A DNA stretch of 64,000 nt from a bacterium (lineage in GTDB: Bacteria > Arandabacterota > Arandabacteria > Arandabacterales > Arandabacteraceae). Numbering within the stretch: the first letter of the stretch is position 1; every line of letters begins with the position of its first letter. The stretch covers positions 200,879-264,878 of the forward strand of contig JAOZOU010000004.1 of NCBI GenBank assembly GCA_029933125.1, given 5' to 3'. The notes beneath the pieces are model-generated. The model was not told where the DNA came from and made no database searches. It was given only the letters and a program-made list of their open reading frames with translations. The position numbers and the translations under genes are program-made. Of this stretch, positions 3,036-22,807 are shown in pieces.

Positions 3036-5738
3036 ATGTCTGCCTTGATTAGGATCAGCTTTGTACTTGCCCTTGTTTTGCTTTTTGCAGTCACCTCTGT
3101 GTTTGGCCAGGAGGTCGGAAGGATTGAAGGAACTGTGGTGGCTGCTAAGGATGGGAAACCCTTAGCCTATGCTAATGTGCTTCTTGTTGGTACGGGCATG
3201 GGGACATTTGCTAAGCAAAACGGAACTTTTACGCTTGAGAATGTTCCTGCAGGAACGTATACCGTCAAGGTCATGATGATGGGTTACGCTGCTCAGACAA
3301 GGGAGAACGTTGTTGTCAAGCCAGGGGAGACCACGCGGCTTAGATTTGAGCTCAAAGAGACTGTTGTGATGGAAGTGCCTGTTGTTGAAGTGGAAGCTGA
3401 AAGACCGATGGTTGATACCGAGCGAACCCAAACGAAGCGAACCATCGATACCAAGGAAGTCGCTGTGCGCTCGATCAATACAGTTGAGGATGCTATTGCA
3501 ACCCAGGCTGGAGTCGTTCTTGAACAGGGCGAGATCCATATTCGAGGTGGAAGATCTGGTGAAGTCAAGCAGTTTGTCGACGGTATTCAGATCAGTGATC
3601 CTTTCGTCGGCGCCAACTCGATGGAGCTCAGCCTTGCATCGCTTTCAGAGATAGAAGTTCTTTCGGGTGGCTTTGATGCTGAATATGGCAATGTCCAGTC
3701 CGGTGTTATCAATCTCAAGACGAGAGAGGGTGGAACGAGATATTCGGGTCTTGTTAAGTATATGACTGATGACTATGGAGCACCTGATAAGACCTATTTC
3801 AACTACGATGATTTAGCAATCGGCTTTGGGGGACCTCTGATTACAACCAATCTGAGATTTTTTGCCTCTGGCGAGGTTATGTTTACTGACACCTACCTTA
3901 AGACTCTTGAACCCAGGCAGCAAAAGGAGCTTTGGGGATTCATCAAGTTCCGTGAACGTCAGAGCAATAGCTACTCAGGTCAATGCAAGGTTACCTACTT
4001 CTTCACACCGACGAAAAAGCTCTCCTTGGAGTATCTCACCTCGGGTGAGAAGTTTGATTTTTATCATCATGCATTCAGTCGTGTTGGTTATTGGTCAGAA
4101 GCCCACAGACACTGGTGGTTTGAACCGCTTGATTCAACCTATAGCCTTTACATAGCACCTGCCCACACACCTGATATTACAAATGAACATAACAGTGTTA
4201 AGCTTGTCTGGAGACACACAATAAGCCCATCCGCATTTTACACGATGCGCCTCGGAAGATACGTCGCACTTCATAAAGAGGTTGTCCTTGGCAAGAAACC
4301 CTATGAATATGTGACCCCGAACTTCAACGATCGAGTTGATCCCGAAAACCGCTACTATGTTGTGCAGGGCGATTATCCAATCTGGCAGCGCTATCATACG
4401 ACGATGTACACAGGCAAAGGCGATATGACCATTACCAAGGGTACGACTCATCAGATAAAGTTTGGTGCAGAGTCACACGCCTATCGCCTCGAGATGATGG
4501 ATTTGCGTTATCCCTCCCTCGATAACCCCCTTGGTGTATTCACTGATATATACAAGTTCCATTGCTGGGACCTGTCAGCCTTCATTCAGGATCGCATAAG
4601 GTTTGAGGGTATGAACTTGAGGGTGGGCCTAAGATTTGACCTTTTCGACCCTGGTAAGGATGCTGTCGAAGCCTATAATAGATTCGTGGTATCGACAGGT
4701 TTTAAGCCCAAGCCAGCCTCCTTCTTCAAGCGAATTGAGTGGCAGATAAGTCCGCGCTTTGGGGTTTCCTATCCTATTTCAGAAAGAGACGCCCTTTACT
4801 TCAATTATGGGAGATTCTACCAGATTCCAAGGCTCGAGGTTCTTTACCAGTTCCTGGGTCGAACCGAGCAGGGACTGCTTCCTTTCGGTAATCCCCTCAT
4901 GGATGCTGAGACAACAATAATGTATGAAGTTGGCATTCAACATCAATTCACTCCAACGATTGTTGGTGATATTGCCCTGTTCTATAAGGACATCTTTGGA
5001 CTTACGGGCACTGAGGCAGCCGATCTAACTGAGGATTCTGACTTTATTCAGACCTATGGTCCGACCGCCACACCTGTTGTCTTTGTCAACCTTGACTATG
5101 GATCGGTGAGAGGCATTGAATTCAAACTCAGCAAACGTTTCAGCCATCATTTCCAGGGCAGTCTAACTTATACTTTTTCCAAGGCTACTGGCTCGAGCTC
5201 TAACGAGCTCCAGGGTGCCAATGTTGTGAGTGGGGCAATGGATCGAGCTCCGATAACTGAGCTGCCCCTTGATTGGGATAGAAATCATGTCATATCTGCA
5301 AATCTATATATAAGTGAGCCCGGGCTTTGGGGTTGCAACATTGACTGGAGCTATTCGTCAGGAGCACCCTATACGCCAATGTTGCCGAGGGAGCGTGAGG
5401 TCAGGGCTTCATTGATAAATTCAAGGCGGCTTCCTTCACGGAGCACGGTCAATGTGAAGGCCGACAAGCGTTACAAGATTGCTGGCCAGGAAGTTTCCCT
5501 CTTCCTCGAAGGCAGAAACATACTGAACCGCAAGAACATCGCTACGCTTGATCCAGGAGATTGGCCGGGTGGGGATGGCAACTACGCCGCGTATTATACA
5601 AGGGAGGGTAGGTTTGGTGGAGCTTATGACTTGGGTGAGCTGCTCGGGCTTACGGAGGTGATTTACATTCCTTTGAACGATCCACGAGTCTACTCGCCGC
5701 CTCGCAACTTCAGGGTTGGCATATCATTCGACTGGTAA
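3036..5738 (+). CDS. TonB-dependent outer-membrane transporter with N-terminal carboxypeptidase-regulatory-like domain (module copy 1)
   Basis: Has a signal peptide, a CarbopepD_reg-like beta-sandwich (GTVVAAKDGKPLAYANVLLVGTG...GTYTVKVMMMGY), a plug domain (IHIRGGRSGEV...SGVINLKTREG) and a C-terminus ending in an aromatic residue (GISFDW). An SD (GGAGGGG) precedes the ATG. Paralogous to 22808-25411. Confidence 0.8.
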   Translation: MSALIRISFVLALVLLFAVTSVFGQEVGRIEGTVVAAKDGKPLAYANVLLVGTGMGTFAKQNGTFTLENVPAGTYTVKVMMMGYAAQTRENVVVKPGETTRLRFELKETVVMEVPVVEVEAERPMVDTERTQTKRTIDTKEVAVRSINTVEDAIATQAGVVLEQGEIHIRGGRSGEVKQFVDGIQISDPFVGANSMELSLASLSEIEVLSGGFDAEYGNVQSGVINLKTREGGTRYSGLVKYMTDDYGAPDKTYFNYDDLAIGFGGPLITTNLRFFASGEVMFTDTYLKTLEPRQQKELWGFIKFRERQSNSYSGQCKVTYFFTPTKKLSLEYLTSGEKFDFYHHAFSRVGYWSEAHRHWWFEPLDSTYSLYIAPAHTPDITNEHNSVKLVWRHTISPSAFYTMRLGRYVALHKEVVLGKKPYEYVTPNFNDRVDPENRYYVVQGDYPIWQRYHTTMYTGKGDMTITKGTTHQIKFGAESHAYRLEMMDLRYPSLDNPLGVFTDIYKFHCWDLSAFIQDRIRFEGMNLRVGLRFDLFDPGKDAVEAYNRFVVSTGFKPKPASFFKRIEWQISPRFGVSYPISERDALYFNYGRFYQIPRLEVLYQFLGRTEQGLLPFGNPLMDAETTIMYEVGIQHQFTPTIVGDIALFYKDIFGLTGTEAADLTEDSDFIQTYGPTATPVVFVNLDYGSVRGIEFKLSKRFSHHFQGSLTYTFSKATGSSSNELQGANVVSGAMDRAPITELPLDWDRNHVISANLYISEPGLWGCNIDWSYSSGAPYTPMLPREREVRASLINSRRLPSRSTVNVKADKRYKIAGQEVSLFLEGRNILNRKNIATLDPGDWPGGDGNYAAYYTREGRFGGAYDLGELLGLTEVIYIPLNDPRVYSPPRNFRVGISFDW

Positions 5739-5761
5739 AGACCGTTAGGGAGGGTCGAAGA

Positions 5762-7900
5762 ATGGCAAGGGGAAGGTTGTGTTGCTCCGCAGCACTTATT
5801 GGCATTGTGGTCGTCCTGATTTTTGGGACTCTTTTGGAAGGTGAGACCTCAGCACATAACGAAGATTTCGGATTTCCACAGGTCTATCCTGATCCCTCTG
5901 ACCGTGTAGTGAAGTTCTTAGGCAAGTATCATAATCTCAACAATCTTTTGCTACATGTCTCCAACATGGGTTTCTTTGGTGATTGGAACTCCGATCCGAC
6001 TTCGCCATCGGCTGAATGGCCGGCCGGAAGCGGTATAGAGTATCTCTTTGCTGCAGGGCTTTGGGTTGGTGGAGTCGTCTATGACGAGTTCAACCGACCC
6101 GATACACTGGTAAGTGCTGCGGTTTATCAGCTCGAGTACTATCCCAAACCCGATGCCCGTGACGTGATCTACAAGACTGCTGAGAATGAACCGGGGGGCA
6201 GTAGAATTGGGGATGGTGCCGACGATGACGACGACAATCTGGTTGATGAAGATTGGCTTGACGGCTATGACAATGACGGAGATGGATTCATTGATGAGGA
6301 TTTTGCGGCAATCTCACAGCAGATGTACACGTGTACATTTTATGACACGACCACACTGATGAATGCCAACAGAACCGAGGATTTCCACAAGCCGCTCAAT
6401 TTACGTGTTAGACAGGAAAGTTATGCCTGGGGAGGTGAGGCTGCTAAGGATTTCATAGGCGTCGAATACAAGGTCACAAACATTGGGGACTCGACGATTT
6501 ATCAGGCATATGTGGCTTTCATGGTGGATGCCGACATAGGACCCGTTCGCCAGGTTCCGACCTCTTACACAGATGACATGGCCGCCTTCATTGATACGAC
6601 CGTCAAAAAATTTGAACTTAATCTCGATACTGGCAAGATAGAACCGAATGACTATGATCTAACTATTGGTTACATGTACGACTATCCAGGGGGAGACGAT
6701 GGTGATGTTCCAGGCTATATAGGCGTCATGTTTCTTGGTCACACGGTTGATGAAACAGGTAGGCTTGCGCCTCAGCGCGTTGAGATTCACATGTTCAGAA
6801 GCTGGTCAAGTGGTGAAGAGGATCCTCAGGATGACAAGGAACGCTACCGTTACATGCGGGGTAATTCCGATTTTGAGCAAACGATCGATCCGCCGACCAC
6901 AAAGCCTCAAGATTACCGATTCCTTGTTTCAGCTGGTCCCTTTGCGAGGATTCCGCCAGGAAGCACTCTTGTCTTCCAAGTCGCCTTCGTGTGCGGCCAT
7001 CCTTTTGATGACTTTATCGACAATGCTGCGTATGCTCAGAAGATCTACAATGGACGGGTGATTGACGACATACTATACCACTGGGTCGGGTCCAGTCCGC
7101 CTCCGCCGCCGAATCAGATGGTTATACCTAGTGATGGGAAGGTGATCATTGAATGGGATGACTACTCCGAGAGGGTACCCGATCCTCTTGAAGGGTGCTT
7201 TGACTTTGCTGGCTACCGAATCTGGCGAGCAGATGGGTGGAGGCATGAAAGTGAGGTGCCTACGGAGAATCAGTGGAAGCTTATAGCCCACTATGACCTG
7301 GACGATCTGCCGGCAATCGATACAGGCCTCGAGGGAGTTGGCAAGTATCGCTATATAGATTCCGTGGGTGTCCATAACGGGCTCCCCTATTGGTATGCTG
7401 TCACCGCCTTTGATGATGGTCGGGCATTCAGGTTCGTCGTTGATCCGGAGACAGATAGGATGGATTCGATACCGTTCTATGGGAGCTATGCCCAGGCACA
7501 GAAACTCGTATACCCAAGAGCTGAACCTGCTAGAAGAATGGGAAAAGTCCGAATTGTACCCAATCCCTATCCATGGAATCCGAGCAATCCCACGATCCCA
7601 GACGACCTCAGGGAGTCACATCGGGCAATTGGCGACATGGTTGAGTACGAAGGTGATCCCTCAGGGCGAAGGGTGACTTTCGTTGGCCTGCCTCGCAAGT
7701 CGATGGTGAGAGTGTATACCTTGGCTGGCGACCTTGTCTGGAGCAAGTATTTTGAGGGGCCGAATGATCCGATTACAGGTGCACCACCTCAGTGGAATCT
7801 GGTATCAAGAAACAACCAGGAGATTGTTAGCGGAATCTACATTGTCCATGTAGAATCACCTTACGGGTCTGAAATAACAAAGTTCGTTGTCGTCAGATAG
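5762..7900 (+). CDS. secreted acidic protein with Fn3-like domain and T9SS C-terminal sorting domain (module copy 1 cargo)
   Basis: Has a signal peptide and Asp-rich EF-hand/dockerin-like loops (DGADDDDDNLVDEDWLDGYDNDGDGFIDEDF). A poly-Pro linker (SSPPPPPNQ) is followed by an Fn3-like segment (YRIWRADGW...YWYAVTAFDDG). The C-terminal about 90 aa match the Por_Secre_tail pattern (RIVPNPYPW...VRVYTLAGDLV...GIYIVHVES...KFVVVR). A strong SD precedes the ATG. Confidence 0.7.
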   Translation: MARGRLCCSAALIGIVVVLIFGTLLEGETSAHNEDFGFPQVYPDPSDRVVKFLGKYHNLNNLLLHVSNMGFFGDWNSDPTSPSAEWPAGSGIEYLFAAGLWVGGVVYDEFNRPDTLVSAAVYQLEYYPKPDARDVIYKTAENEPGGSRIGDGADDDDDNLVDEDWLDGYDNDGDGFIDEDFAAISQQMYTCTFYDTTTLMNANRTEDFHKPLNLRVRQESYAWGGEAAKDFIGVEYKVTNIGDSTIYQAYVAFMVDADIGPVRQVPTSYTDDMAAFIDTTVKKFELNLDTGKIEPNDYDLTIGYMYDYPGGDDGDVPGYIGVMFLGHTVDETGRLAPQRVEIHMFRSWSSGEEDPQDDKERYRYMRGNSDFEQTIDPPTTKPQDYRFLVSAGPFARIPPGSTLVFQVAFVCGHPFDDFIDNAAYAQKIYNGRVIDDILYHWVGSSPPPPPNQMVIPSDGKVIIEWDDYSERVPDPLEGCFDFAGYRIWRADGWRHESEVPTENQWKLIAHYDLDDLPAIDTGLEGVGKYRYIDSVGVHNGLPYWYAVTAFDDGRAFRFVVDPETDRMDSIPFYGSYAQAQKLVYPRAEPARRMGKVRIVPNPYPWNPSNPTIPDDLRESHRAIGDMVEYEGDPSGRRVTFVGLPRKSMVRVYTLAGDLVWSKYFEGPNDPITGAPPQWNLVSRNNQEIVSGIYIVHVESPYGSEITKFVVVR

Positions 7901-7926
7901 GATAATTGAGGAAGGAGGATTTCGAG

Positions 7927-8904
7927 TTGAAAACTAAGATTGGATTAGCGCTTGCATTGATCCTGCTTGTTTCAAGCCTTGTCTGGTCGGCTGAGATCTT
8001 TGAGAAGGTTGGTACGGTTGGTGCCCAATTTCTCAAGATTGGGGTTGGTGCTCGTGGCGTTGGAATGGGTGAGGCATTTGTTGCCATGGATGGCGATGCC
8101 ACGTGCACGTACTGGAATCCAGCTGGCATAGCAAATATTGAAGGAAGTCAGTTTTCTCTGAGCCATGCTTCATGGCCTGCGGAGATGAGTCATGAGTTCG
8201 CTGCCTATGTTTTCTCCTACAAGTTTATACCAGGAGTGCTCGGGCTGAGTGCGGTGGTTCTCCAGATGGATCCAATGCCTGAGACGACAGAATATCGTCA
8301 GCAAGGCACTGGTTATTCCTTCGATGCCGGTAGTATGGCCTTTGGTCTGACGTATGCAAGGATGCTAACTGACCGTTTCTCTTTTGGTGCAACTTTGAAG
8401 TGGATACACGAAGGGTTGGCGGACTTCAGTGGCGAGACTTTTGCAGTTGATCTTGGGAGCATCTACAACACAGGCTTCAGGGACATAAAAATCGGCATGG
8501 CATTCGTAAACATGGGATCAGGCTATACTTTCTTCGAGGGAGGCAAGGAAAGTCCGATGCCTGTGATGTTTAAGGTAGGTGGATCAATGCCTCTGTTGAA
8601 CACCAGTGACCATAGGTTGATTGGGGCCGTGGAATTCAATCATCCACCGGATGGTGCCGAGCGGGTGAATGCTGGTGCTGAATACGTATTCCAGCGTTTT
8701 GGGCCTAACTTTGAAATAGCCTTGAGAGGTGGCTATCGCTTCAACCGTGATGAAGAGGGTATTACAGCAGGTTTTGGCATAAAGTTCCCATTTGTCAGAA
8801 TTGGCCTTGTCAACAAGCCCTCGATATGGAGAGTTGACTATTGCTATTCTGACATGGGCTTGCTCGAGAGCTCCCATAAGATCTCTCTGAGCGCTTCGTA
8901 TTAA
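7927..8904 (+). CDS. PorV/PorQ-family (FadL-like) outer-membrane beta-barrel protein, dedicated paralog (module copy 1)
   Basis: Signal peptide followed by the family-typical motif GTVGAQFLKIGVGARGVGMGEAFVAMDGDATCTYWNPAGIA. Length is about 330 aa and the protein ends in an aromatic-rich beta-barrel terminus (LSASY). Start re-called at TTG 7927, which has the SD GAGGAAGGAGGA 7 nt upstream. The ORF-track start at 7906 lies inside that SD. Confidence 0.6.
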   Translation: MKTKIGLALALILLVSSLVWSAEIFEKVGTVGAQFLKIGVGARGVGMGEAFVAMDGDATCTYWNPAGIANIEGSQFSLSHASWPAEMSHEFAAYVFSYKFIPGVLGLSAVVLQMDPMPETTEYRQQGTGYSFDAGSMAFGLTYARMLTDRFSFGATLKWIHEGLADFSGETFAVDLGSIYNTGFRDIKIGMAFVNMGSGYTFFEGGKESPMPVMFKVGGSMPLLNTSDHRLIGAVEFNHPPDGAERVNAGAEYVFQRFGPNFEIALRGGYRFNRDEEGITAGFGIKFPFVRIGLVNKPSIWRVDYCYSDMGLLESSHKISLSASY

Positions 8905-8905: not shown

Positions 8906-10474
8906 ATGCGGTACTCGAGGCAAACTCAAGGGGTAGCAAGTGGTTTGCTACCCCTGATTGCTATTCCTCTCTTCCTGCCGTTGTCCGCCCTGTATGCCCA
9001 GACATGGGCTGAGTATGGTGACGTGCCAGTAAGCAGTAGCGGTGATCTCACCTTCTATGCCGATATTGCTAGCTACTATGATGGGGCAGAGAATCTCGAA
9101 GAAATCTACTTTCTGATAGCGAATGATCAGGTAAAATTTCTCGAAGATGCACATGGATACAAAGGGAGGCTCAGACTTTCAGTTGACCTACTCAATGACG
9201 ACGGTAGTGTTGCTGGAAAGGCTGAAAATGAAGTCACGGTTTATGCTTCGAGCTCGGAGGAAGCTCTCGACCGCAGCGTAGTCCAGGTTCTTCAAACACA
9301 GATTCATGTTCCGCCCGGTCGTTACGTTGCGAAGATGGAGATTGAAGATCTCAATGCTGTGAAAAAAGCCCTTATTCCATACATTCTTAAGCGACATAAG
9401 AAGGGTAGGGTTGAAGTCCTGATAGACTCACCCGATTTCAAAGCCAAGGGAATCGCACTAAGCGACATAGAGTTTGCAAGGGGACTTCGTAGGACTAGCA
9501 AGGGGCAGTTCCAGAAATCGGGATTAGAGATCATTCCAAACCCTCCTCGGCGCTATGGGCTCTTGCTTCCAGAGCTCGCCATCTACTTCGAGGTTTATGA
9601 TTTTGATCAGGAGGTTTCCGATTCGGTCACCGCAACCTACAGGATAGTGAATAGGACAGGTGCAGAGATATATAAGCAGCAGAAGCTTTTGCGGGTAAGA
9701 GGAGAGCGCACACCGAGTACCGCTCTGTTTGATATTACATCCTTGAGTGCGGGTAGCTATCTTCTCGTTGTCAGCCTTGATCTTGCAGGGAGAAGCGTCA
9801 GCAGTCAGCGGAAGTTTGACGTGGCCTGGTCACCGCTGTCCTGGGGAAGGTACGAAACTGAGATGATAGGAGACGTGGAATACATCCTCACAGAGAAAGA
9901 GATGGAGGAGTTTGAATCACTCTCCCCTGGGGGGAGGGAAAGATATCTCGAGGAGTTCTGGCGCAGGCTTGACCCCACACCTGGTACTGCTGAGAATGAG
10001 GCGAGAACGGAGCATTATCGAAGAGTCGTCTATGCCGACAAACACTTTGGGACGAGCACCAAGCGTGGAGCCCTCTCCGATAGAGGGAGGCTCTACATTA
10101 AGTACGGTCCACCCGATGATATCCAGAGTTTCTATTCTGACATGGATTTTGTTAAAGGCAGACGCCACATCGAAGGTGCTGAGTCGCCAGTACCGACCGA
10201 TCCCTTCACTCGCGTGGGAATAAAGGCTGGTTCGGGTGAGCCTGGTGGATGGCAACAGGCCGGCTCATCTGCAGATGTCCATGGAGATCAAATTGGTGGC
10301 ATGACAGTTCATGGCAAAGCGTATGAGATATGGACATATGAAGGCGCTGGCAAGCCGATTCGGCGTCTTTCAAAGCGGATTGCTAAGAGTCCTGTGATGC
10401 AATTTATCCTGGTTGATGAGAAAGGAATAGGCGATTACAGGCTTGTCTATAGCACCGAGCAACAGGAATACTAA
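8906..10474 (+). CDS. GWxTD-domain protein, secreted (copy 1)
   Basis: Signal peptide plus a C-terminal region (EEFWRRLDPTPGTAENEARTEHYRRVVYADKHFG...RGRLYIKYGPPDDIQ) that matches the GWxTD-domain pattern. Paralogous to 18630-19886, which carries the exact GWRTD motif. Starts 2 nt after the PorV-like stop. Confidence 0.55.
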   Translation: MRYSRQTQGVASGLLPLIAIPLFLPLSALYAQTWAEYGDVPVSSSGDLTFYADIASYYDGAENLEEIYFLIANDQVKFLEDAHGYKGRLRLSVDLLNDDGSVAGKAENEVTVYASSSEEALDRSVVQVLQTQIHVPPGRYVAKMEIEDLNAVKKALIPYILKRHKKGRVEVLIDSPDFKAKGIALSDIEFARGLRRTSKGQFQKSGLEIIPNPPRRYGLLLPELAIYFEVYDFDQEVSDSVTATYRIVNRTGAEIYKQQKLLRVRGERTPSTALFDITSLSAGSYLLVVSLDLAGRSVSSQRKFDVAWSPLSWGRYETEMIGDVEYILTEKEMEEFESLSPGGRERYLEEFWRRLDPTPGTAENEARTEHYRRVVYADKHFGTSTKRGALSDRGRLYIKYGPPDDIQSFYSDMDFVKGRRHIEGAESPVPTDPFTRVGIKAGSGEPGGWQQAGSSADVHGDQIGGMTVHGKAYEIWTYEGAGKPIRRLSKRIAKSPVMQFILVDEKGIGDYRLVYSTEQQEY

Positions 10475-10481: not shown

Positions 10482-10510
10482 TTGACAAGGTTGGGTGGGG
10501 ATATTATGGT
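10482..10510 (+). promoter_or_regulatory. possible promoter TTGACA-N17-TATGGT upstream of exbB
   Basis: TTGACA at 10482-10487 and TATGGT at 10505-10510, with a 105-nt leader to ATG 10616. Confidence 0.3.
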
Positions 10511-10615
10511 TTATGCGATCAATCACATGGTCGTTTGATCGGGTGCTTACCGATCGACGGCCTATTAATGTGGTTAGGACAGACTAGGGATAACTTCCAC
10601 AAGGAGAAGGGTAGA

Positions 10616-11449
10616 ATGAATCGCATGAGGCTCTGGCTCTTTTTGCTCACAGTTGCTGCAGGTCTTGTTTTTGCTTTGGCTTGTCATGCTCAGGAGCAGG
10701 CTACAACCGAGCAGGCAGCCACTGATACCTCCATTGCGGCGATGTTGAAATCCCTCGAGGCACCCCCAGAAGAAGCTCAAGCTGCTGAAGAGGGATTCGT
10801 AGCCAGGATACGCAAGAGCGGACTGGTGACCCTTTTCTTAAAAGGTGGAATCTTCATGTATTTCCTCTTGGGCACATCCATTGTTGGTGTGGCTGTTATC
10901 ATAGAGCGTGCGATTACACTGAGTCGCGCTAGGACTGACGTGCGGAAGCTGATGAAGCGAGTGCTTGATGCCCTTCATTCAAAGGGAGTTGAGGCAGCTG
11001 CCCACGAGTGTGAGAGAACCCGGGGACCGATTGCGGCGATCCTTCATGCTGGTCTTAAGCGTGCAGAGCGAGGAACGGAGGCTGTTGAGCGAGCAATTGA
11101 GACTGCCGGTACGATTGAAACCTCTTTCCTCGAACGGGGTCTTATCTGGTTGGCAACAGTTGCAACGATTGCCCCACTCTTAGGCTTCCTCGGAACAGTT
11201 TCAGGAATGATTCGAGCCTTCAACGCGATTGCTGAGGCTGAACAGGTCAATGCCAAGCTTGTTGCATCGGGTATCTCAGAGGCTCTTATCACAACCGCTA
11301 CTGGGCTTTTGATAGCTATTCCTGTTCAAGCATTTCATAATTTCTTTGTTTCTCAGATAGATCGTTTTATAATAGAGATGGAGGAGTCAACAGCAGATCT
11401 AATAGATACGCTGATCATGCTTGGCGCTGTAAAGGAAACCCAAGACTAA
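10616..11449 (+). CDS. exbB: MotA/TolQ/ExbB proton-channel protein with N-terminal periplasmic extension
   Basis: Signal peptide and periplasmic extension, then MotA_ExbB TM helices (GGIFMYFLLGTSIVGVAVIIERAITL...LATVATIAPLLGFLGTVSGMIRAF). Start moved from ORF-track 10535 (TTG) to ATG 10616, which has SD AAGGAGAAGG upstream. Confidence 0.8.
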   Translation: MNRMRLWLFLLTVAAGLVFALACHAQEQATTEQAATDTSIAAMLKSLEAPPEEAQAAEEGFVARIRKSGLVTLFLKGGIFMYFLLGTSIVGVAVIIERAITLSRARTDVRKLMKRVLDALHSKGVEAAAHECERTRGPIAAILHAGLKRAERGTEAVERAIETAGTIETSFLERGLIWLATVATIAPLLGFLGTVSGMIRAFNAIAEAEQVNAKLVASGISEALITTATGLLIAIPVQAFHNFFVSQIDRFIIEMEESTADLIDTLIMLGAVKETQD

Positions 11450-11463: not shown

Positions 11464-11871
11464 GTGAAATTCGGACGAAGAGCCAAGGTTTCGGATGAGA
11501 TACCAAATGCATCGCTCTCCGATATAGCATTCTTACTCCTCATATTCTTCATGGTGAGCACAGTCTTTGCAATTGAGGAAGGGCTTCTGCTTCAGCTGCC
11601 AAGCAAAGAAGGTGTTGTTAAGAAGATTGCTCGTAAGAACATAATGCGCATCTCGATTTATGCTGATGGCAACATAACCGTTGATGATCAGCCAGTTACC
11701 TTGGATCAGATAAGGCAAAAAGTTGAGCAAGCTCAGGTGGAGAATCCTAAGATCGTCTTTGTTGTTGAGACTTCACCCGAAGCCAGATATGGTCAGATGG
11801 TGGATGTTCTCGATGAACTTAAATTAGCTAAAGCTACAAGGGTTTCACTAAAGCGGCTTGAGGAAAAGTGA
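11464..11871 (+). CDS. exbD: biopolymer transport protein ExbD/TolR
   Basis: 135 aa with an N-terminal TM segment (DIAFLLLIFFMVSTVF) and the ExbD periplasmic fold pattern. Confidence 0.8.
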   Translation: MKFGRRAKVSDEIPNASLSDIAFLLLIFFMVSTVFAIEEGLLLQLPSKEGVVKKIARKNIMRISIYADGNITVDDQPVTLDQIRQKVEQAQVENPKIVFVVETSPEARYGQMVDVLDELKLAKATRVSLKRLEEK

Positions 11872-11880: not shown

Positions 11881-12300
11881 ATGGCTAGGTTTCAGAAGAA
11901 GATCCGTGCCGAGAGTAAGATTCCGACCTCTTCAATGGCGGATATCGCCTTCTTGCTCCTTATCTTCTTTATGGTTACAACAGTTCTTAAGCTTGAGGAA
12001 GGACTCCCCATAGCATTGCCGAAAGCGGAGGCAGCTGAGGATATTCCCCGAGAGAACGTGATTCACATATGGGTTGACCGCACGGGCAAGATCTCGATAA
12101 ATGACATGATAGTCAAGACCGGTGCTGTTGAGGGGATCGTTTCTCAGAGATTGAGGTCAAATCCTGGAATAATAGTTGCCTTCTACACGGATGAAAATGC
12201 CCCCTATGGAGTAATGGATGACATAATGGAGCAGCTTAAGAGGGCAAGTGCGGTCAGGGTATCCTTTGCATCCAAGAAGGAGAAGCTTCGCTTAAGATAG
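11881..12300 (+). CDS. exbD: biopolymer transport protein ExbD/TolR (second copy)
   Basis: 139 aa, paralog of the preceding gene (MADIAFLLLIFFMVTTVL...). Confidence 0.8.
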   Translation: MARFQKKIRAESKIPTSSMADIAFLLLIFFMVTTVLKLEEGLPIALPKAEAAEDIPRENVIHIWVDRTGKISINDMIVKTGAVEGIVSQRLRSNPGIIVAFYTDENAPYGVMDDIMEQLKRASAVRVSFASKKEKLRLR

Positions 12301-12307: not shown

Positions 12308-12925
12308 GTGTCAGTGACAGCTTATGCTGAACTCAAAGCGAAATATCCCAAGTATCTTGAAATTGGATTCCTGCTTGCGATTGTGATCCATGCAGTTGCT
12401 TTCGCTTTCTGGCCGGAGTATGTGCCTTCGGTCTATAAGCTCAGGGAGGAGAAATTTGAAGTTGTCGATATTCCACCCGAGATAGAGATACCCCCACCAC
12501 CTGAGGAGATAGCCAGACCAGAGGTCGCTGTCGAGATCGAGGCAAGTGATGAGGCAAGTGAGGAGGAGACCATTGCGCCGACGATGTTCGACGCCGAGAA
12601 TCTACCACCTGCTCCTCCACCTCCACCACCTGAACCTGAGATGTTTTTTGCGTTCGATACCTATCCGCAGGTGATTCATGCAGCTAAGCCTAAGTATCCT
12701 GAACTGGCTCGCAAGGCCGAGGTCGAAGGTACTGTTGTGGTGATGGTTACTATTGATGAAACCGGCAAGGTCATAAATGCGTGGATTGCCCAGTCCGATG
12801 CCCCGATCCTCAATGATGCTGCTATTGAAGCAGCCTATAAGTTCAAGTTTACGCCCGCTAAGCAGCGCGATGTGCCTGTGAAGGCAACCATTAGTATTCC
12901 ATTTAGATTTTCGCTTACCGAGTAG
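12308..12925 (+). CDS. tonB: energy transducer TonB
   Basis: N-terminal TM anchor, a Pro/Glu-rich spacer (PPEIEIPPPPEE...PPAPPPPPPEPE), and a C-terminal TonB domain (AKPKYPELARKAEVEGTVVVMVTIDETGKV...). Confidence 0.75.
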   Translation: MSVTAYAELKAKYPKYLEIGFLLAIVIHAVAFAFWPEYVPSVYKLREEKFEVVDIPPEIEIPPPPEEIARPEVAVEIEASDEASEEETIAPTMFDAENLPPAPPPPPPEPEMFFAFDTYPQVIHAAKPKYPELARKAEVEGTVVVMVTIDETGKVINAWIAQSDAPILNDAAIEAAYKFKFTPAKQRDVPVKATISIPFRFSLTE

Positions 12926-13010: not shown

Positions 13011-13697
13011 ATGAACGGTTTGGGCAATCTCACATCGATATTCTTCAATCCTGAGAAGGTGGCAACATCTGTTGCTGAGAAACCTCGTTGGCTGCCTGCT
13101 TTTGTTATCTTTCTAGTCGTTATGGCGCTTGTCGGCTATGGCAGCTACAACTATGCCATAGATACCCAGTATGGGGTGGCGGCTAAGGTTGGGGAAGGTG
13201 GGAAATCCCAGGAGGTTTATATGGCATTTCTTAAGTCACCCGCCATTCGTATAATCTCAAGCATAGTTCAGGGTATCTCGATGTTTGTAACGTTTGTCCT
13301 CATTCCAGCTGCCTTGCTCAACTCCATTGCTTCTATCGTGGGGACCCCGGTTGGCTTTAAGAGGATGCTTGCCTATATGTCCCATGTTGGTCTCATAATT
13401 GCCGCCGGTCAAATTGTTCGATTTCTCCTGATTATGGCAAAGCACACCCCCGACGTCAGATTGAGCCCTGCCGCATTCTTCCCTAATCTCGCATTGTTTT
13501 CCCCCATGATGACTTTTCTCTCATCCTTTGACATCTTCTCGATATGGGCTTTGATAGCAGTTGTCGTCGGTTACAAGGAATTGGCGAAAATGAAGATGAG
13601 TAAAGCCGTGCTTGTGGTTGTAAGCCTTTGGCTGATAGGAGTTGGTATCCTGGTTGGCCTTGTCGTGTTAAGGGGTTTGTTTGTTCGTAAAGTATAG
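13011..13697 (+). CDS. hypothetical polytopic membrane protein (Yip1-like topology)
   Basis: 228 aa with about 5 TM helices. Its SD and start are buried in a 13-bp perfect hairpin (12957-13010). Confidence 0.4.
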   Translation: MNGLGNLTSIFFNPEKVATSVAEKPRWLPAFVIFLVVMALVGYGSYNYAIDTQYGVAAKVGEGGKSQEVYMAFLKSPAIRIISSIVQGISMFVTFVLIPAALLNSIASIVGTPVGFKRMLAYMSHVGLIIAAGQIVRFLLIMAKHTPDVRLSPAAFFPNLALFSPMMTFLSSFDIFSIWALIAVVVGYKELAKMKMSKAVLVVVSLWLIGVGILVGLVVLRGLFVRKV

Positions 13698-13711: not shown

Positions 13712-15034
13712 ATGAAGCTAAGTAGCCGTCGCCTCGTATTTGGCTTGGGTTCGCTGTTAATCTGGACCTGTTTTTGCAGTCCCAGCCATGCATCCGTCGA
13801 TACATTGCACATCAATCTCGACGAGTGTGTAAGGCTTGCTCTCACCGTCAATACGGAGGTCGTTAAGGCACGCTACCAGCTCAAGCAAGCCTCCAGCTAT
13901 GTTCTAACTTCTGCGTCACAATTGCTTCCAACACTCGGTTTTCAATCGACCCATTCAAAGTATGAAGAGTCCTTTCTGCGTCAGGTTGGCGATCGTGTAA
14001 TAGTTACTGACGAGAGCTATACAGCTTCGCTTGCCCTATATGAATCCTTCACAATTGGTGGTATCATGGGAACACTGGAATCCATGGAGGCACGTCAGGC
14101 ATCGTCACATAATCTCCGCAAGGTGAGGCAGGAAATTGCCTATCTTGCTCGTGAGAAATATCTCAGCGTTCTAAGAGCGAAGCATCTTCTCGAGGTAAGG
14201 GAGGATGCGCTTGATCTCAGTAAGCGTCGTCTGGAGAAGGCTAAAGCTATGCTTGATGTTGGTTCTGGAGTTCGCTTAGATGTCTTAAGAGCTCAAGTTC
14301 AGGTAAGTAACGATCAGATGGATGTTATTGCGGCGAGAAATGCTTTGCGTCTGGCTGAGGCCGGTCTCAGGCATTTCCTGAAGCTTGATCCTCAACTTGT
14401 TCTCGACCTTGAAGATGTAAGTGAAACTCGAGATCTTGATATTGAGCTTGAAGAAGCTCTTAGGGAGGCTTCAAGCAACCGTGCTGATATCCATTCAGCT
14501 GAGGCGAATCTTCGAGCAGCTTCACGCCAGGTGTGGAGGGAGCGCGGGGGTTGGTTTCCCTCGCTTACATTCAGATGGTCAGACAGATACACAGGGAACA
14601 AGTTTCCAGAAAGAGTTTCCACTCTTTCTGATGATGCCAAGTGGAGCTGGGATCTTACAGCCTCCATCAATCTCTTCGATGGTTTCTACACTTTCAGTCG
14701 AGTGCGAAATGCAAAGGCTGCAAGGGAGATCGCCAGACAGGAGCTTGATCAATTCATGAGGGATGCGGCTTTAGAAGTAAGGCAGGCCTATTATGATATG
14801 GAGGAGGCGAGAGAGCGGCTTGATGTTAGCCGCAAGACAGTTCAGCTTGCCCAAGAGGAGCTTAAGTTGGCTGAGGAGAGCTACAGGCTTGGCACTGCTA
14901 CCATGCTAGAACTGATTGATGCTCAGGTCTCCTTGAGTCAGGCTAAGGTGGCCCATGTCGAGGCTGTCTACGACTATATTCTGTCGCAGGCAAAGCTCCT
15001 CAAGGCAATCGGGAAGGACGGGGTCGAAGGATGA
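13712..15034 (+). CDS. TolC-family outer-membrane efflux protein
   Basis: Signal peptide, 440 aa, duplicated coiled-coil/beta-barrel OEP architecture. Precedes an HlyD-type adaptor, overlapping it by 4 nt. Confidence 0.75.
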   Translation: MKLSSRRLVFGLGSLLIWTCFCSPSHASVDTLHINLDECVRLALTVNTEVVKARYQLKQASSYVLTSASQLLPTLGFQSTHSKYEESFLRQVGDRVIVTDESYTASLALYESFTIGGIMGTLESMEARQASSHNLRKVRQEIAYLAREKYLSVLRAKHLLEVREDALDLSKRRLEKAKAMLDVGSGVRLDVLRAQVQVSNDQMDVIAARNALRLAEAGLRHFLKLDPQLVLDLEDVSETRDLDIELEEALREASSNRADIHSAEANLRAASRQVWRERGGWFPSLTFRWSDRYTGNKFPERVSTLSDDAKWSWDLTASINLFDGFYTFSRVRNAKAAREIARQELDQFMRDAALEVRQAYYDMEEARERLDVSRKTVQLAQEELKLAEESYRLGTATMLELIDAQVSLSQAKVAHVEAVYDYILSQAKLLKAIGKDGVEG

Positions 15035-16215
15035 GCAAGAAAAAACTCATTTTAATTTTGGGTGCTGTTGCGGGAATAGGTGCGATTGTTGTAGCTAACC
15101 TGCGGCTTTCATATGAGCCAAGTGTTGGGGTTGAGGTAACGAAGGTTGGGCGGGGCAAAGTTGTCGAGAAGGTTTCAGGTCCAGGAGTTGTGCAAGCTGT
15201 CTCCTCTGTCAAAATTAGCTCTTCTGTCATGGGGAGAATTGTCACACTCATGGTCAAGGAGGGAGACCACGTTGAGAAGGGGGATACCCTCCTTATGATT
15301 GAATCATCACAATATCGAGCACGCCTTGAACAGGCTCAGGCTGCCTTCAAGGCTGCTCTTGCTAGGCTTGAGCTTGCGAGAGCCAGGCTTGGTGAGGCCA
15401 AAGATGACCTCGAAAGGGAGTCAAAGCTGGCTGAGGCTAATCTTGTCTCCTCCAGAGAAGTCGAGAGAGCTAGAACAGCTTTTGCTGTCGCGAAGGCTGA
15501 GTTCGATGCAGCTGAACATGCAGCTCGAGAGGCCGAAGCATCTCTTGAGGCTGCACGGGACGATCTTGAGAAGACAGTCATCACATCGCCCATATCTGGC
15601 ACTGTGACAAGTCTCAATGTGGAGCAGGGTGAGATAGTCATCACCGGTACAATGAACAATCCTGGAACAGTCATAATGACTATAAGCAAGCTTGATACCA
15701 TGGAGGTAAGGGCTGAGATCGACGAAACCGACATCACAAAGGTTGCTCCTGGTCAGATAGCTGAGATAAGCGTAGATGCTTTTGCTGACACATTGCTAAG
15801 GGGTGTGGTCTCAAGTGTAGGCAGCTCAGCTCGCTCAACAGCCTCATCTGGTCAAAGAGCAGCCTTCGAGGTCAGAGTTAGAATCCTTGAGAATTTAGCC
15901 GGGCTGAGGCCTGGTATGACTACAACTGTCGATATAATTACGGCAAGCGAAGACAGTGCTACCTATGTTCCTCTCCAGGCACTTGTATTGAGGGATATTA
16001 AGACGGATGACGGGAAGATACAAAAGGAGGGCATATTCATCGTTGATAATGGCCGAAGCAAGTTTTTGCCAGTCACAACGGGAATTTCAGATGATCTTCA
16101 CATTGCGATTCTTGATAGCTTAAGTGAGGACACAGATGTGATCGTGGGACCCTTCAGAATACTTCGAGATCTCGAGGATAGCACCAAGGTCAAGATTATC
16201 AGGCGAAGGCAATGA
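15031..16215 (+). CDS. HlyD-family periplasmic adaptor (membrane fusion protein)
   Basis: N-terminal TM segment, a long Ala/Glu/Arg coiled coil, and biotinyl-lipoyl-like and beta-barrel segments (ITSPISGTVTSLNVEQGEIV). Confidence 0.75.
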   Translation: MSKKKLILILGAVAGIGAIVVANLRLSYEPSVGVEVTKVGRGKVVEKVSGPGVVQAVSSVKISSSVMGRIVTLMVKEGDHVEKGDTLLMIESSQYRARLEQAQAAFKAALARLELARARLGEAKDDLERESKLAEANLVSSREVERARTAFAVAKAEFDAAEHAAREAEASLEAARDDLEKTVITSPISGTVTSLNVEQGEIVITGTMNNPGTVIMTISKLDTMEVRAEIDETDITKVAPGQIAEISVDAFADTLLRGVVSSVGSSARSTASSGQRAAFEVRVRILENLAGLRPGMTTTVDIITASEDSATYVPLQALVLRDIKTDDGKIQKEGIFIVDNGRSKFLPVTTGISDDLHIAILDSLSEDTDVIVGPFRILRDLEDSTKVKIIRRRQ

Positions 16216-17432
16216 CTTTCGTAGATCTGCTCCGCATTTCCTCAACTTCTCTGCTCAGGCACAAGCTACGATCAGCCCTTACTATCCTTGGCATAGTGAT
16301 AGGAATACTTTCGGTTTCCTCTATCACAGCAATTGTGCGCGGAATAGACAGCTATGTAGCCAGTATCCTAGGAGCTCTTGGCTCTCAGGGTTTCCTAGTT
16401 ACCAAGATAGGCATTCCAAAGAGTGAACAGGACTATTTCAAAGCCCTGAGACGTAGGGAGCTTGAGCCCGAGATGGCTGAAATCATAAAGTCGAGGTGCC
16501 CATCAGTTGCCTATGCAAGCCCAGTGCTCAGAGCAAGCGCCGAGGTAAAGGTCGGAAAGCGAAGTTCTAAGGGCGTCACCATCGAGGGAACCAACTCTGA
16601 CATTCAGTATATGACGGATGCGGAGCTTGAGGATGGACGCTACTTCAATGAGTACGAGACTCAGCATGGCAGAAACGTATGTATTCTTGGACACGATGTT
16701 AGTGAGAAGCTATTCGCTGGCAGAAGTGCCATAGGTGGGCACATTTACATAAGGGGGCATCGTTTCACAGTTATCGGGTTGCACAGCGGCATGGGTACCT
16801 TTTTTGGCATCTCGAGAGATTCATTCCTAAGAATTCCGTATACCACATTTCGCAGGATTTTTGGAAAACCGATTGGAACTGAGATTTCGGTGAAGAGCCT
16901 TGAGCCTGAGCTCACAGATCAGGCAGTTGAGGAAACACGGGCGGTTTTGCGTAGGCTCAGGAAACTACGGCCCGACGAGGAAGATGACTTCGGGATTCTG
17001 ACCTCTGAGATGTTGATGCGGATGTGGAGAACTATCTCAACCAACATATTCATAGTCACGATTGGAGTTGGGAGCATAGCATTGCTTGTGGGCGGAATTG
17101 GTATCATGAATATCATGTTTGTTTCCGTCAAGGAACGCACAATGGAGATAGGTTTGAGGAAAGCTACAGGAGCTAGGCGAAAGGATATCGTGTTTCAATT
17201 TCTGACAGAATCGATTCTGCTTTGTTTGGGCGGTGGTTTTCTCGGTATCTTGCTTGGAGCTATGGGTGCCAAAGCGCTTGCCTGGAAGACCAACATTCCT
17301 GTCGCAGTTGAATGGTGGGCTATACTTCTAGGATTGGGCGTTGCGGTCGCTGTGGGGATCTTCTTCGGAGTATATCCTGCGGTAAGAGCTGCGTCACTTG
17401 CACCATACGATGCCCTGAGGTATGAGAAGTGA
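16212..17432 (+). CDS. ABC transporter permease, FtsX/MacB-like (no ATPase domain)
   Basis: 406 aa with an N-terminal TM segment, a MacB-type periplasmic domain, and a C-terminal FtsX 3-TM bundle (ALLVGGIGIMNIMFVSVKERTMEIGLRKATGA). Confidence 0.75.
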   Translation: MTFVDLLRISSTSLLRHKLRSALTILGIVIGILSVSSITAIVRGIDSYVASILGALGSQGFLVTKIGIPKSEQDYFKALRRRELEPEMAEIIKSRCPSVAYASPVLRASAEVKVGKRSSKGVTIEGTNSDIQYMTDAELEDGRYFNEYETQHGRNVCILGHDVSEKLFAGRSAIGGHIYIRGHRFTVIGLHSGMGTFFGISRDSFLRIPYTTFRRIFGKPIGTEISVKSLEPELTDQAVEETRAVLRRLRKLRPDEEDDFGILTSEMLMRMWRTISTNIFIVTIGVGSIALLVGGIGIMNIMFVSVKERTMEIGLRKATGARRKDIVFQFLTESILLCLGGGFLGILLGAMGAKALAWKTNIPVAVEWWAILLGLGVAVAVGIFFGVYPAVRAASLAPYDALRYEK

Positions 17433-18637
17433 AATGGGTCGGTGAAACGGTAAGGGTTGCAATATCTTCGCTACTTGCGAACAGACTTAGAACACTCCTT
17501 ACGGTTATTGGAGTGATAATCGGTATTGGAACGATAATTGCCATGTTGGCTCTCATTAACGGTATCAATAGATCTGTCCTGACCGAGTTTGAAAGACTTG
17601 GACCAAATGTGATCTTTATAACACTAGAAGAACCAGGATTGCGTGTAGGTTTTTCTGCGGTCAGGAGGAAACGCATAACCTATCGCGAGGTTGAGCAGTT
17701 AAGGCGGAGATGTGATTCTATTGATAAGATGTCGATCATTTCCCAGCAGCGGTCGGTCGTCAGCTATCGTGGAAGAGACAATGTTGTGACCCTTCTGGGC
17801 GTGCAGGCTGATTATGATGAAGTTGCAGCCCTGAGGCTTGCTGAAGGGAGATTCTTCAATGAGGTTGAGGAAAAGGGGTTGAGAAGGTGTGTCTTGGGTG
17901 CTGAGGTTGCCAAGAATTTCTTTGGAAAGGCATCACCACTTGGTAAATTCGTCGAAATAGGGGGACAGCGCTTCAGGATAATTGGAGTCCTGCAAGAGTC
18001 TGGTGTGGTTATGGGAACCAGGTACGATGATGCTGTCTTCATTCCCTATCCCTGGACTAGGGCGATGTTTGGAGAGCGCAGGGATAACTACGTTATGTTG
18101 CTTCCTAATCATGACGTCAATCCCGATGATGCTGTTGAGCATATAAGACTCACACTGCGTTCGATAAGGAAAATACCGCGTGGCTCTGATGACACATTTG
18201 CGATTTCTACTCAGCAGGGAATGCTCGAGACATATAACAAGTTGACAGGTTCAATATACTGGGTTATGAGAATAGTGGCATCAATTGCTCTTCTGGTTAG
18301 TGGTATAGGTATAATGAACATTATGCTGGTCAGTGTGATGGAGAGAACTCGTGAGATAGGTCTGCGTAAGGCTATAGGTGCGAATCGTGCTACTATCGCA
18401 GTCCAATTCCTCATTGAGGCTGTGATTTTGACGAGTATAGGTGGAATTGCTGGAATAGGTTTCGGCTACCTGGTTCGCCTGCTCGTTGGCACTTTGACAC
18501 CCCTACCTGCGAGTGTTCCTCTCTGGGCAATACCGTTTGCTCTCGGGATTTGCTGTGGTATTGGCATCTTTTTTGGACTCTATCCTGCGTTGAGGGCTTC
18601 CGCCCTTGATCCAGTCAAGGCTTTGAGATATGAATGA
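17429..18637 (+). CDS. ABC transporter permease, FtsX/MacB-like (paralog)
   Basis: 402 aa, same architecture (ALLVSGIGIMNIMLVSVMERTREIGLRKAIGA). Confidence 0.75.
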   Translation: MKWVGETVRVAISSLLANRLRTLLTVIGVIIGIGTIIAMLALINGINRSVLTEFERLGPNVIFITLEEPGLRVGFSAVRRKRITYREVEQLRRRCDSIDKMSIISQQRSVVSYRGRDNVVTLLGVQADYDEVAALRLAEGRFFNEVEEKGLRRCVLGAEVAKNFFGKASPLGKFVEIGGQRFRIIGVLQESGVVMGTRYDDAVFIPYPWTRAMFGERRDNYVMLLPNHDVNPDDAVEHIRLTLRSIRKIPRGSDDTFAISTQQGMLETYNKLTGSIYWVMRIVASIALLVSGIGIMNIMLVSVMERTREIGLRKAIGANRATIAVQFLIEAVILTSIGGIAGIGFGYLVRLLVGTLTPLPASVPLWAIPFALGICCGIGIFFGLYPALRASALDPVKALRYE

Positions 18638-19886: not shown

Positions 19887-20655
19887 GGATTGCTACTCCC
19901 AATCGTATGTTCGCCTTCCCGTTGCGAGTCTGAGAGCAAAGCCAAACAGACAGGCTGAGCTGATTTCTCAGGAGGTGGTAGGAAGAAGGGTAGAGATTCT
20001 CAGGTGCAGAGGCGATTGGCTAAAATGTCGCTTGAGGGATGGTTATCTTGGATGGCTACCCAGAAGGGCTGTTGCGGTGGATCCCGATTTTATGGCAAGC
20101 CACTTTGTAGTCTCACGCTTTGTTCGTATGCGATCCACTTGCGGAAAGGTGATACTGCCCCTTGGAAGTGTAGTAAAGGCGAAAAGATCGGGAAAATCCT
20201 ATGAGATCTACCTTCCCGGAGGTCAGGTTGGATTTATGGAAGCGGGCAAGCTCAGGTCACTTAGATTTCTTCCATTTGATTCCAGCCAGTACAGGAGGCT
20301 AGTTAGGGAAGTTGCTGGAGCTCCTTATCTCTGGGGAGGCAAAACACCTTTCGGATTCGACTGCTCTGGTCTAGTTCAGGTGATTTTTGATCTTATGGGC
20401 GTGATGTTGCCGAGGAACTCACGTGATCAGGCAAGAATTGGAAAGCCTATCGAATCAATCCATAAAGCTCAGGTTCTTGATCTTTTATTCTTCGCACACG
20501 GGGCTAACATCGATCATGTTGCCATCTACCTTGGCGAATTGAGGTTCCTCCATGCATCCGACTGGGTGAAGATTGAGTCATTGAGGGAAGGCGATCCTTG
20601 CTACAGGGGTGACCTGTTGGCCAGCCTAGTTGAGATCAGGAGAACTGTTCTATGA
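19840..20655 (+). CDS. NlpC/P60 (C40) family peptidase with N-terminal SH3-like domain; start may be downstream (e.g. 19861)
   Basis: Catalytic Cys context YLWGGKTPFGFDCSGLVQVIF, followed by a His region (DHVAIYLG). Confidence 0.7.
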   Translation: MRPVLVTMSSLVNIAKDCYSQSYVRLPVASLRAKPNRQAELISQEVVGRRVEILRCRGDWLKCRLRDGYLGWLPRRAVAVDPDFMASHFVVSRFVRMRSTCGKVILPLGSVVKAKRSGKSYEIYLPGGQVGFMEAGKLRSLRFLPFDSSQYRRLVREVAGAPYLWGGKTPFGFDCSGLVQVIFDLMGVMLPRNSRDQARIGKPIESIHKAQVLDLLFFAHGANIDHVAIYLGELRFLHASDWVKIESLREGDPCYRGDLLASLVEIRRTVL

Positions 20656-22699: not shown

Positions 22700-22807
22700 C
22701 AGGTCCCGACGTGTAAATTCTGCTAAAGAATGCAAACCCTCGGTCGATAGACACCTAGGAAACGTCAGTCAAGAGGTCCTGTATCTTTGTTGGAGGAGAG
22801 GTGTAAC

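Follow-up and report, generated by a model that had tools for sequence, protein, structure and literature searches.

The subject of this analysis is a pair of genes in a window of 64,000 nucleotides (nt) of bacterial DNA, by which we mean the whole stretch analyzed (positions 200,879 to 264,878 of contig JAOZOU010000004.1 in assembly GCA_029933125.1, family Arandabacteraceae). Both genes lie on the + strand and start with ATG. The first, hereafter copy 1, spans 8906-10474 and encodes 522 amino acids (aa), in which a signal peptide and a beta-sandwich region precede a GWxTD domain at approximately aa 318-522; copy 2 spans 18630-19886 and encodes 418 aa, with a signal peptide at aa 1-24 and the GWxTD domain at aa 281-418. 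The initial annotation of this DNA had assigned both open reading frames (ORFs) to the GWxTD family, and they do belong to it, because they pass the cut-offs of the hidden Markov models (HMMs) TIGR04514 (93.9 bits for copy 1 and 116.1 bits for copy 2, cut-off 28) and PF20094 (43.6 and 59.2 bits, respectively, cut-off 26.9). Aligned with each other over approximately 396 residues, the two proteins are 30% identical (E = 9e-43) and are thus full-length paralogues, which therefore have their N-terminal region in common besides the GWxTD domain, as the same annotation had proposed. Its description of the domain as one without known function also holds: the databases and literature searched (under GWxTD, PF20094 and TIGR04514) yielded no assigned function, solved structure or paper for the family, and membership in it is mechanistically uninformative.

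The two copies resemble thousands of homologues in the FCB (Fibrobacterota-Chlorobiota-Bacteroidota) group in having a signal peptide, a beta-rich N-terminal half and the C-terminal domain. Copy 2 carries the motif in its literal form, GWRTD (within GWRTDRG); copy 1 has the degenerate form GALSD in its place, still with a strong match to the family HMM, together with an insertion of approximately 60 aa preceding the last strands. Both of these differences mark the subclade to which copy 1 belongs, hereafter called GW1, since its members generally show G[AM][LF][ST]D instead of GWxTD, loss of the Trp being typical of the whole clade, and a variable insertion of 40-80 aa. The invariant polar residues of the domain are grouped in DPTPxTxxNE, an Arg, GWxTDRG, YGxPD and D...G, with D326, P327, P329, N334, R343, D362 and D404 (copy 2 numbering) among the invariant positions, and no Cys/His/Ser catalytic signature was found among the invariant residues of the GWxTD alignment. 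The proposed secretion of both products agrees with the signal peptides recognized by eye in both copies. In each, a basic n-region is followed by a hydrophobic core and by cleavage at A↓Q (putative sites LYA↓QT and SLA↓QI), of which AQ is kept in the alignment consensus. Inspection by eye found no lipobox of the form [LVI][ASTVI][GAS]C at the end of either signal peptide: the signal region of copy 1 has no Cys, and that of copy 2 contains IFLC, with Leu at -1 and a Cys that is absent from the alignment consensus. Neither copy matches the C-terminal sorting domain of type IX secretion systems (T9SS; TIGR04183 or PF18962) at E <= 0.01.

An AlphaFold2 model of copy 2, computed from a 51-sequence alignment, has a mean predicted local distance difference test score (pLDDT) of 89.8 and a predicted template modelling score (pTM) of 0.75. 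It consists of a signal helix, two beta-sandwiches (approximately aa 38-151 and 164-277) and a C-terminal domain (aa 281-418) of six helices and a four-stranded sheet; the GWxTD domain modelled alone reaches a pLDDT of 89.6. Searched with Foldseek against the PDB, the isolated domain had no match at E <= 1e-3, the best being at E = 0.6. Several candidate similarities were also tried and discarded. Full-length copy 2 retrieved with Foldseek only tandem immunoglobulin (Ig)-like sandwiches (factor XIII, transglutaminase 2 and RbmA) at template modelling scores of approximately 0.2, which are functionally uninformative; weak matches to the TolC-binding lipoprotein YbjP, to OsmE and to a BLIP-like protein had E >= 1 and low probability and were not used; and a sequence search of the PDB with copy 2 gave a chance match (E = 0.6). 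A suspected resemblance of the last ~55 residues (YGxPD...W.Y...F.F.D..G.G.Y.L) to a BamE/SmpA_OmlA-like unit was rejected by hhalign at 0.1% probability against Escherichia coli BamE. A TonB_C-like nature of the GWxTD domain, considered because TonB-like C-termini are common in M56 proteins, was rejected likewise (0.7%, in comparison with aligned TonB C-termini of the loci described below). Finally, two GW1 orthologues, P0182 and P0187, carry a precomputed Por_Secre_tail label; P0182, the one we re-scanned, matches this family internally, in the second sandwich (aa 245-292), with 26.8 bits against a cut-off of 27, and a T9SS sorting domain in GW1 proteins was rejected.

Copy 1 closes a tight series of four genes on the + strand. 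It is preceded by a TonB-dependent receptor with CarboxypepD_reg, Plug and barrel domains (3036-5738; PF13620, PF07715 and PF00593), a 712-aa protein without family assignment (5762-7900) and a PorV/PorQ-family outer-membrane beta-barrel protein (7906-8904), the gaps along the series being 23, 5 and 1 nt. The barrel passes the model of the PorV/PorQ subfamily (NF033709, 190.2 bits, cut-off 90) and fails the equivalog models of PorV (NF033710, 78.8 vs 250 bits) and PorQ (NF033711, 90 vs 220 bits). The 712-aa protein, one of a class hereafter called X, has no match in Pfam; its residues 637-704 weakly resemble the PorZ model NF052228 (E = 1.6e-4) and the T9SS sorting model TIGR04183 (E = 3e-3), both far under their cut-offs, and its homologues occupy the same position in many other loci. 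The TAA of the PorV/PorQ-family gene ends at 8904 and the ATG of copy 1 begins at 8906, so that a single spacer base separates them, which confirms the placement of copy 1 just after that stop in the initial annotation. At 60 nt beyond copy 1 follow, also on the + strand, the genes for ExbB (10535-11449; PF01618), two ExbD proteins (11464-11871 and 11881-12300; PF02472 in both) and TonB (12308-12925; PF03544 and TIGR01352).

A stem-loop of 12 bp with a 3-nt loop (8929-8955) lies inside codons 8-17 of copy 1, 23 nt past the start codon, with a local fold of -28.2 kcal/mol (z-score -2.5). The closest orthologous locus, L001, has the same stem with another loop, and the next one, L002, has a different sequence at this position that still pairs (GAGGGAC...GTCCCTC) and encodes different residues; the element is not evident in orthologues of greater divergence. 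A role in modulating translation or messenger RNA stability of copy 1 is conceivable.

Copy 2 in turn closes an exporter operon, again on the + strand, that comprises genes for a Yip1/YknW-like membrane protein (13011-13697), a TolC-family outer-membrane factor (13712-15034; PF02321, 194 bits), a periplasmic adaptor of HlyD/MacA/YknX type (15031-16215; TIGR01730, 175 bits) and two MacB-type permeases (16212-17432 and 17429-18637). The first protein matches PF04893 with 47.6 bits (cut-off 28.6) and the YknW_fam model NF052650 with 66 bits, under its cut-off of 110. From TolC through copy 2 each junction overlaps by 4 or 8 nt, and the overlap between the permease and copy 2 is indeed of 8 nt (permease TGA at 18635-18637, copy 2 start at 18630), as had been noted before together with the upstream TolC and HlyD genes. 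This stop-start geometry suggests that copies 1 and 2 are translationally coupled to the genes preceding them. Both permeases (16212-18637) have the MacB periplasmic core domain and the FtsX transmembrane domain (PF12704 and PF02687), with no fused ATPase, and no ATP-binding cassette (ABC) ATPase gene is adjacent in the operon. A 4-nt overlap between the HlyD and first permease genes leaves no space for one, and loci L001 and L002 likewise have no ATPase gene between the two, whereas a gene for an ATPase of approximately 230 aa occupies this position in the relatives L008, L012 and L091. Only one ABC ATPase was detected in the window, at 51308-52039; from its position immediately upstream of a sigma-54 gene (52064-53479) it may be LptB. 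The ATPase gene of the exporter may be elsewhere in the genome.

When 1.84 billion cluster representatives (at 50% identity) were searched with a profile, 16,248 GWxTD members were found at E <= 1e-3, of which 3,833 reach E <= 1e-30. The family extends over many poorly cultured phyla, among them Zixibacteria, Eisenbacteria, Ignavibacteria, KSB1, Calditrichota, Marinimicrobia and Acidobacteria, and related loci come also from Caldithrix abyssi (L089) and Rhodothermales (L087). To compare genomic contexts we used two scans: one of genomes, with one genome per species, of which the best 80 loci were kept (all from metagenome-assembled genomes, or MAGs, of the FCB group), and one of metagenomes with the GW1 alignment as query, of which the best 80 loci, at 24-62% identity, were kept. 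ORFs of these loci were chosen greedily by length and labelled by phmmer against the window proteins, and their neighbors were classified with Pfam and NCBIfam. The nearest named relatives are MAGs of Candidatus Eisenbacteria. A neighbor-joining tree of 97 family proteins falls into two deep clades. Clade I, or GW1, comprises copy 1 with its orthologues, the gene of an Ignavibacteriaceae locus (L082) and, from each tandem pair found, the second gene; clade II, or GW2, comprises copy 2, a large group of genes adjacent to rimO and, from the tandem pairs, the first gene. Judged from their sequences, copies 1 and 2 each represent one side of an ancient pair of paralogues, a relationship that the initial annotation had overlooked.

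The gene order around copy 1 recurs well beyond close relatives. The order receptor, X (with its PorZ-like tail), PorV/PorQ-like barrel and GW1, hereafter the four-gene module, was evaluated in the 43 GW1-labelled metagenome loci that had upstream sequence. A PorV/PorQ-like gene lies immediately upstream in 24 of them and receptor or X genes in a further nine, which are counted separately because the crude ORF calling skipped some PorV-like genes; the module is thus present in 33/43, with five of the remainder being second genes of a tandem pair and five standing in another context. This association spans 24-62% identity and includes lineages with only 27-31%; the receptor is found at the same module position in L003, L090, L096, L097, L100, L103 and L106. 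The whole order of genes around the two copies is kept in L001 (74% identity), L002 (50%) and L003/L004 (43%). In L091, in which copy 1 is 27% identical, the complete series reappears: receptor, PorV-like barrel, GW1, ExbB, ExbD, ExbD and TonB, then TolC, ABC ATPase, HlyD, MacB, MacB and GW2.

The first three genes of the module also form a cassette of their own, which occurs twice in the window (3036-8904 and 22787-28318). The second instance, on the + strand, consists of a TonB-dependent receptor (22787-25411), a 630-aa protein without family and with a PorZ-like tail (25421-27313) and another PorV/PorQ-family barrel (27335-28318; NF033709, 191.3 bits). As a side observation, the cassette is present in distant lineages too (L082, L090, L096, L097, L100, L103 and L106), with a receptor bearing CarboxypepD_reg and an X protein of 630-1080 aa that has no Pfam family, and both X proteins in the window (630 and 712 aa) have a weak C-terminal match to the sorting domain of PorZ (E = 7e-6 and 1.6e-4, respectively). 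The arrangement is suggestive of a receptor beside a surface protein that a PorQ-like barrel tethers, and by analogy could be a counterpart of SusC/SusD; we found no description of such a cassette in the literature searched. In L082 (8025-13949, an Ignavibacteriaceae MAG) a GW1-type gene follows receptor, X and PorV-like genes and is itself followed by genes for an LpxL-like lipid A acyltransferase, a GT9 heptosyltransferase, Sua5 and a PMT_2/TPR glycosyltransferase, a neighborhood of lipopolysaccharide (LPS) biogenesis.

The contexts of GW2-type genes are more diverse. GW2 closes an operon of Yip1, TolC, HlyD, ABC, MacB and MacB genes in 13 of the 80 genome loci (of Zixibacteria and Eisenbacteria type), often preceded by ExbD-TonB, and the 8-nt overlap between permease and GW2 is also seen in L001 (74% identity), L002 (50%) and L008/L009 (34%). 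In L003/L004 (8646-11245) and L096 the Yip1, HlyD and MacB genes are gone and TolC directly precedes GW2, while L137/L141 have the order TolC-GW2-GW1 without a MacB gene; because the adjacency of TolC and GW2 survives the loss of HlyD and MacB, the link to GW2 would seem to run through the outer-membrane component. Among the genome loci generally, the upstream neighbor is RimO in 34/62 and a MacB-type permease in 7/62, and the downstream neighbor is an Omp85/POTRA protein in 14/61 or PfkB followed by Omp85 in 10/61. Counting six genes upstream and four downstream in all 80 loci, RimO appears in 38, Omp85 in 26, MacB in 13, HlyD in 12 and TolC in nine. In MAGs of Ignavibacteria and Bacteroidota the order is rimO, GWxTD, sometimes pfkB, and a short BamA-like Omp85 gene of approximately 590 aa (L006, L011, L021, L025 and about 30 further loci). 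(Of note, the gene run of L006 also has mlaE, an ABC ATPase gene and mlaD downstream and a heptosyltransferase gene upstream.) Common to the three recurrent contexts of GWxTD genes is a gene for an outer-membrane barrel, be it PorV/PorQ-like, TolC or Omp85. Tandem GW2-GW1 pairs are found in 9/80 genome loci and 10/80 metagenome loci, in varied surroundings; because they occur beside TolC as well as beside housekeeping genes, the GW2-GW1 pair is the most portable unit.

Evidence of a different nature comes from Acidobacteria, in which the GWxTD domain is fused to Peptidase_M56 (P0228, P0230-P0232, P0234 and P0236). P0228 has the zinc motif HELAH, a transmembrane helix at approximately aa 311-333, a Pro/Ala linker, the GWxTD domain at aa 379-493 and a beta-rich tail; P0232 likewise has Peptidase_M56 (HELAH), then a transmembrane helix, then the GWxTD domain. 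At locus L092 (6609-8962; Acidobacteriia, GCA_020073615.1) a BlaI-like repressor gene lies upstream of the P0228 gene and overlaps its start. By domain order, this pair is a putative BlaR1-type two-gene signalling unit with GWxTD in the position of the sensor. In BlaR1 and MecR1 the extracytoplasmic sensor is the part of the chain that follows the last helix, and because the GWxTD domain occupies this position, the analogy argues that it recognizes a ligand or partner outside the cytoplasmic membrane.

Gene order and this one domain fusion form the basis of the interpretation that we favor, at a probability of roughly 0.45, namely that GW1 and GW2 are a periplasmic, non-enzymatic binding pair serving outer-membrane machines; export, periplasmic location, physical partnership and non-enzymatic nature are all properties that we infer. 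Both proteins would be exported by the Sec system as soluble periplasmic proteins made of two Ig-like beta-sandwiches followed by the GWxTD alpha/beta domain, and would act as binding or adaptor subunits docking on the periplasmic side of outer-membrane beta-barrel machines. The partner of GW1 would be the module of receptor, PorZ-tail protein and PorQ-like barrel, that of GW2 the TolC-dependent exporter of YknWXYZ/MacAB type, and the GWxTD domain itself would be a module for recognition of a ligand or partner, as in the BlaR1-type sensors. Because tandem pairs recur in varied surroundings, GW1 and GW2 may work together, possibly as a heteromer. A much more ambitious version, which we regard as unlikely, would have a heteromeric GW1-GW2 adaptor of unseen fold at the core of an undescribed envelope system conserved in the FCB group and its relatives, in which the receptor and the surface protein tethered by the PorQ-like barrel would be a SusC/SusD analogue derived from T9SS attachment and wired both to ExbBD-TonB and to the TolC/MacB exporter, with GWxTD defining a new class of BlaR1-type periplasmic sensors.

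Several observations weigh against a binding pair devoted to outer-membrane machines. The commonest upstream neighbor of GW2-type genes is rimO, the gene of a cytoplasmic ribosomal-protein methylthiotransferase unrelated to the envelope, and its stop overlaps the start of the GWxTD gene by 4 nt in six loci, so tight stop-start spacing alone is no evidence of partnership. Tandem pairs adjoin also ileS/yceD, tsaE/tsaB and aspartokinase/asd, the second cassette of the window has no adjacent GWxTD gene, and the invariant polar residues of the domain might just as well line an active or metal site. Moreover, keeping the best 80 loci of each scan biases the sample to relatives of the queries, synteny kept within related lineages is not independent evidence, and the paralogue tree was built without support values. 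The consistent coupling to envelope transport operons that the initial annotation had proposed therefore stands in part: it recurs upstream of GW1, at the end of GW2 exporter operons and in the distant L091, and does not hold for the family as a whole, given the rimO and housekeeping contexts and the loss of the pump genes. The periplasmic or outer-membrane accessory role suggested in the same annotation retains the strength of an inference.

The same facts can be read as inherited synteny without functional coupling, in which GWxTD proteins would be general housekeeping proteins of the envelope or periplasm whose position beside transport genes is a historical accident. We judge this explanation rather improbable. 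Besides the frequency and overlaps of rimO and the housekeeping neighbors of the tandem pairs, it would account for the retention of GW2 in L003/L004 after loss of the pump genes, for the glycolysis genes that lie downstream of GW1 in L090 and for the ordinary chromosomal character of the window region, with housekeeping genes at 35-64 kb. It is less easily reconciled with the presence of the module upstream of GW1 in three-quarters of the informative loci over such a span of identity, with the return of the full supercluster at 27% identity in L091 and with the conservation of the MacB-GW2 overlap at 34%, since gene order kept over large divergence amid changing surroundings usually reflects selection for co-expression.

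Two further explanations keep a functional role at the envelope and change its nature. GWxTD proteins might be cargo, exported by Sec into the periplasm and then moved to the cell surface, GW2 through the MacB-type/TolC exporter, in the manner of dispersin, which is exported through the Aat system, and GW1 held by the PorV/PorQ-like barrel. Both copies combine signal peptides with Ig-like sandwiches typical of surface proteins, the genes sit at the 3' end of an exporter operon and right after a PorV/PorQ-family gene, and PorV and PorQ do hold surface proteins (PMC12365241). However, the lack of a T9SS sorting match in either copy, the internal and sub-cut-off nature of the match in P0182, the presence before the PorV-like gene of an X protein that already has a PorZ-like tail to fill the barrel, the absence of an exporter near most family members and the BlaR1-type fusions, which put GWxTD just outside the inner membrane, make this a distinctly unlikely proposition. 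Alternatively, the domain might be an enzyme of new fold acting on an envelope polymer (peptidoglycan, LPS or lipoprotein), with the transport operons merely co-regulated. This would explain why many invariant polar residues are grouped in short motifs, no fold match argues otherwise, and genes for murein-peptide enzymes in the lineage of the window and LpxL-like and heptosyltransferase genes in L082 are nearby. Against it, Pfam, NCBIfam and the PDB yielded no catalytic motif or family match, GW1-type proteins are strongly conserved despite loss of the Trp and Thr of the motif, which fits a binding scaffold better, and use of the domain in BlaR1-type sensors suggests ligand recognition; we hold an enzyme to be the least probable of these explanations.

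In Porphyromonas gingivalis the PorQ barrel anchors PorZ at the outer membrane, and the barrels sit above and contact the periplasmic PorK/N ring (PMC12365241). The genes for the PorZ-tail protein and the PorQ-like barrel that precede GW1 recall the PorQ-PorZ and PorV-PorU pairs, and GW1 could by analogy be a periplasmic partner of the PorQ-like barrel akin to PorK/N. There are also differences: the barrel fails the PorQ and PorV equivalogs, the X proteins have no match to the PorZ propeller, the window has no other T9SS gene, and the module begins with a TonB-dependent receptor, a protein foreign to the T9SS. To our knowledge no GWxTD protein has been described as a component of that system. 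The exporter with its Yip1 protein, TolC, HlyD/YknX-type adaptor and two MacB-type permeases resembles YknWXYZ, a four-component pump (PMC4887032), and MacAB-TolC; it differs by the missing ATPase gene in the window, L001 and L002 and by the sub-cut-off score of the YknW model. We know of no accessory periplasmic protein like GW2 in pumps of these types. P0228 and P0232 share with BlaR1/MecR1 the M56 protease, the final transmembrane helix and the extracytoplasmic domain, P0228 being paired with a BlaI-like repressor as well, whereas the window proteins are stand-alone exported proteins without an M56 domain. In BlaR1 proper the sensor is a penicillin-binding-protein-like domain.

Between copy 2 and the second cassette lies a trio of genes on the + strand (19840-22699) encoding an SH3 and NlpC/P60 peptidase, a DUF1611 protein that is DgcN-like (234 bits vs a cut-off of 480) and a racemase of the enolase superfamily, DgcA-like or similar to L-Ala-D/L-Glu epimerases. 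All their NCBIfam equivalog scores are sub-cut-off, and the combination suggests murein-peptide or D-glutamate catabolism. The trio stays with GW2 in L001-L004 and L096, and is not with it in L008. A scan of the window for promoters and terminators gave as many matches as shuffled sequence; with counts at chance level, the positions of the two best sigma-70-like sites, before the receptor gene (2943-2972) and between copy 1 and exbB (10482-10510), are suggestive. Over the first 31.8 kb of the window, almost all genes have + orientation. The long ORFs share it, with few exceptions, as far as 61.3 kb, and the guanine-cytosine (GC) skew is positive throughout the window, which is consistent with the leading strand of one replichore.

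The GWxTD family is already catalogued, though uncharacterized. In relation to the literature searched, what appears to be new is its structure of two paralogues, the four-gene module of receptor, X, PorV-like barrel and GW1, and the BlaR1-type fusion. If synteny is all that connects these genes, copies 1 and 2 are a pair of unremarkable proteins with a domain that is catalogued and has no known function. If the partnership is true, they would represent a new periplasmic component of TonB-dependent uptake or TolC-dependent export in these phyla. No surprising mechanism has emerged so far, and a large orphan family of poorly cultured phyla gains a functional lead that can be tested.

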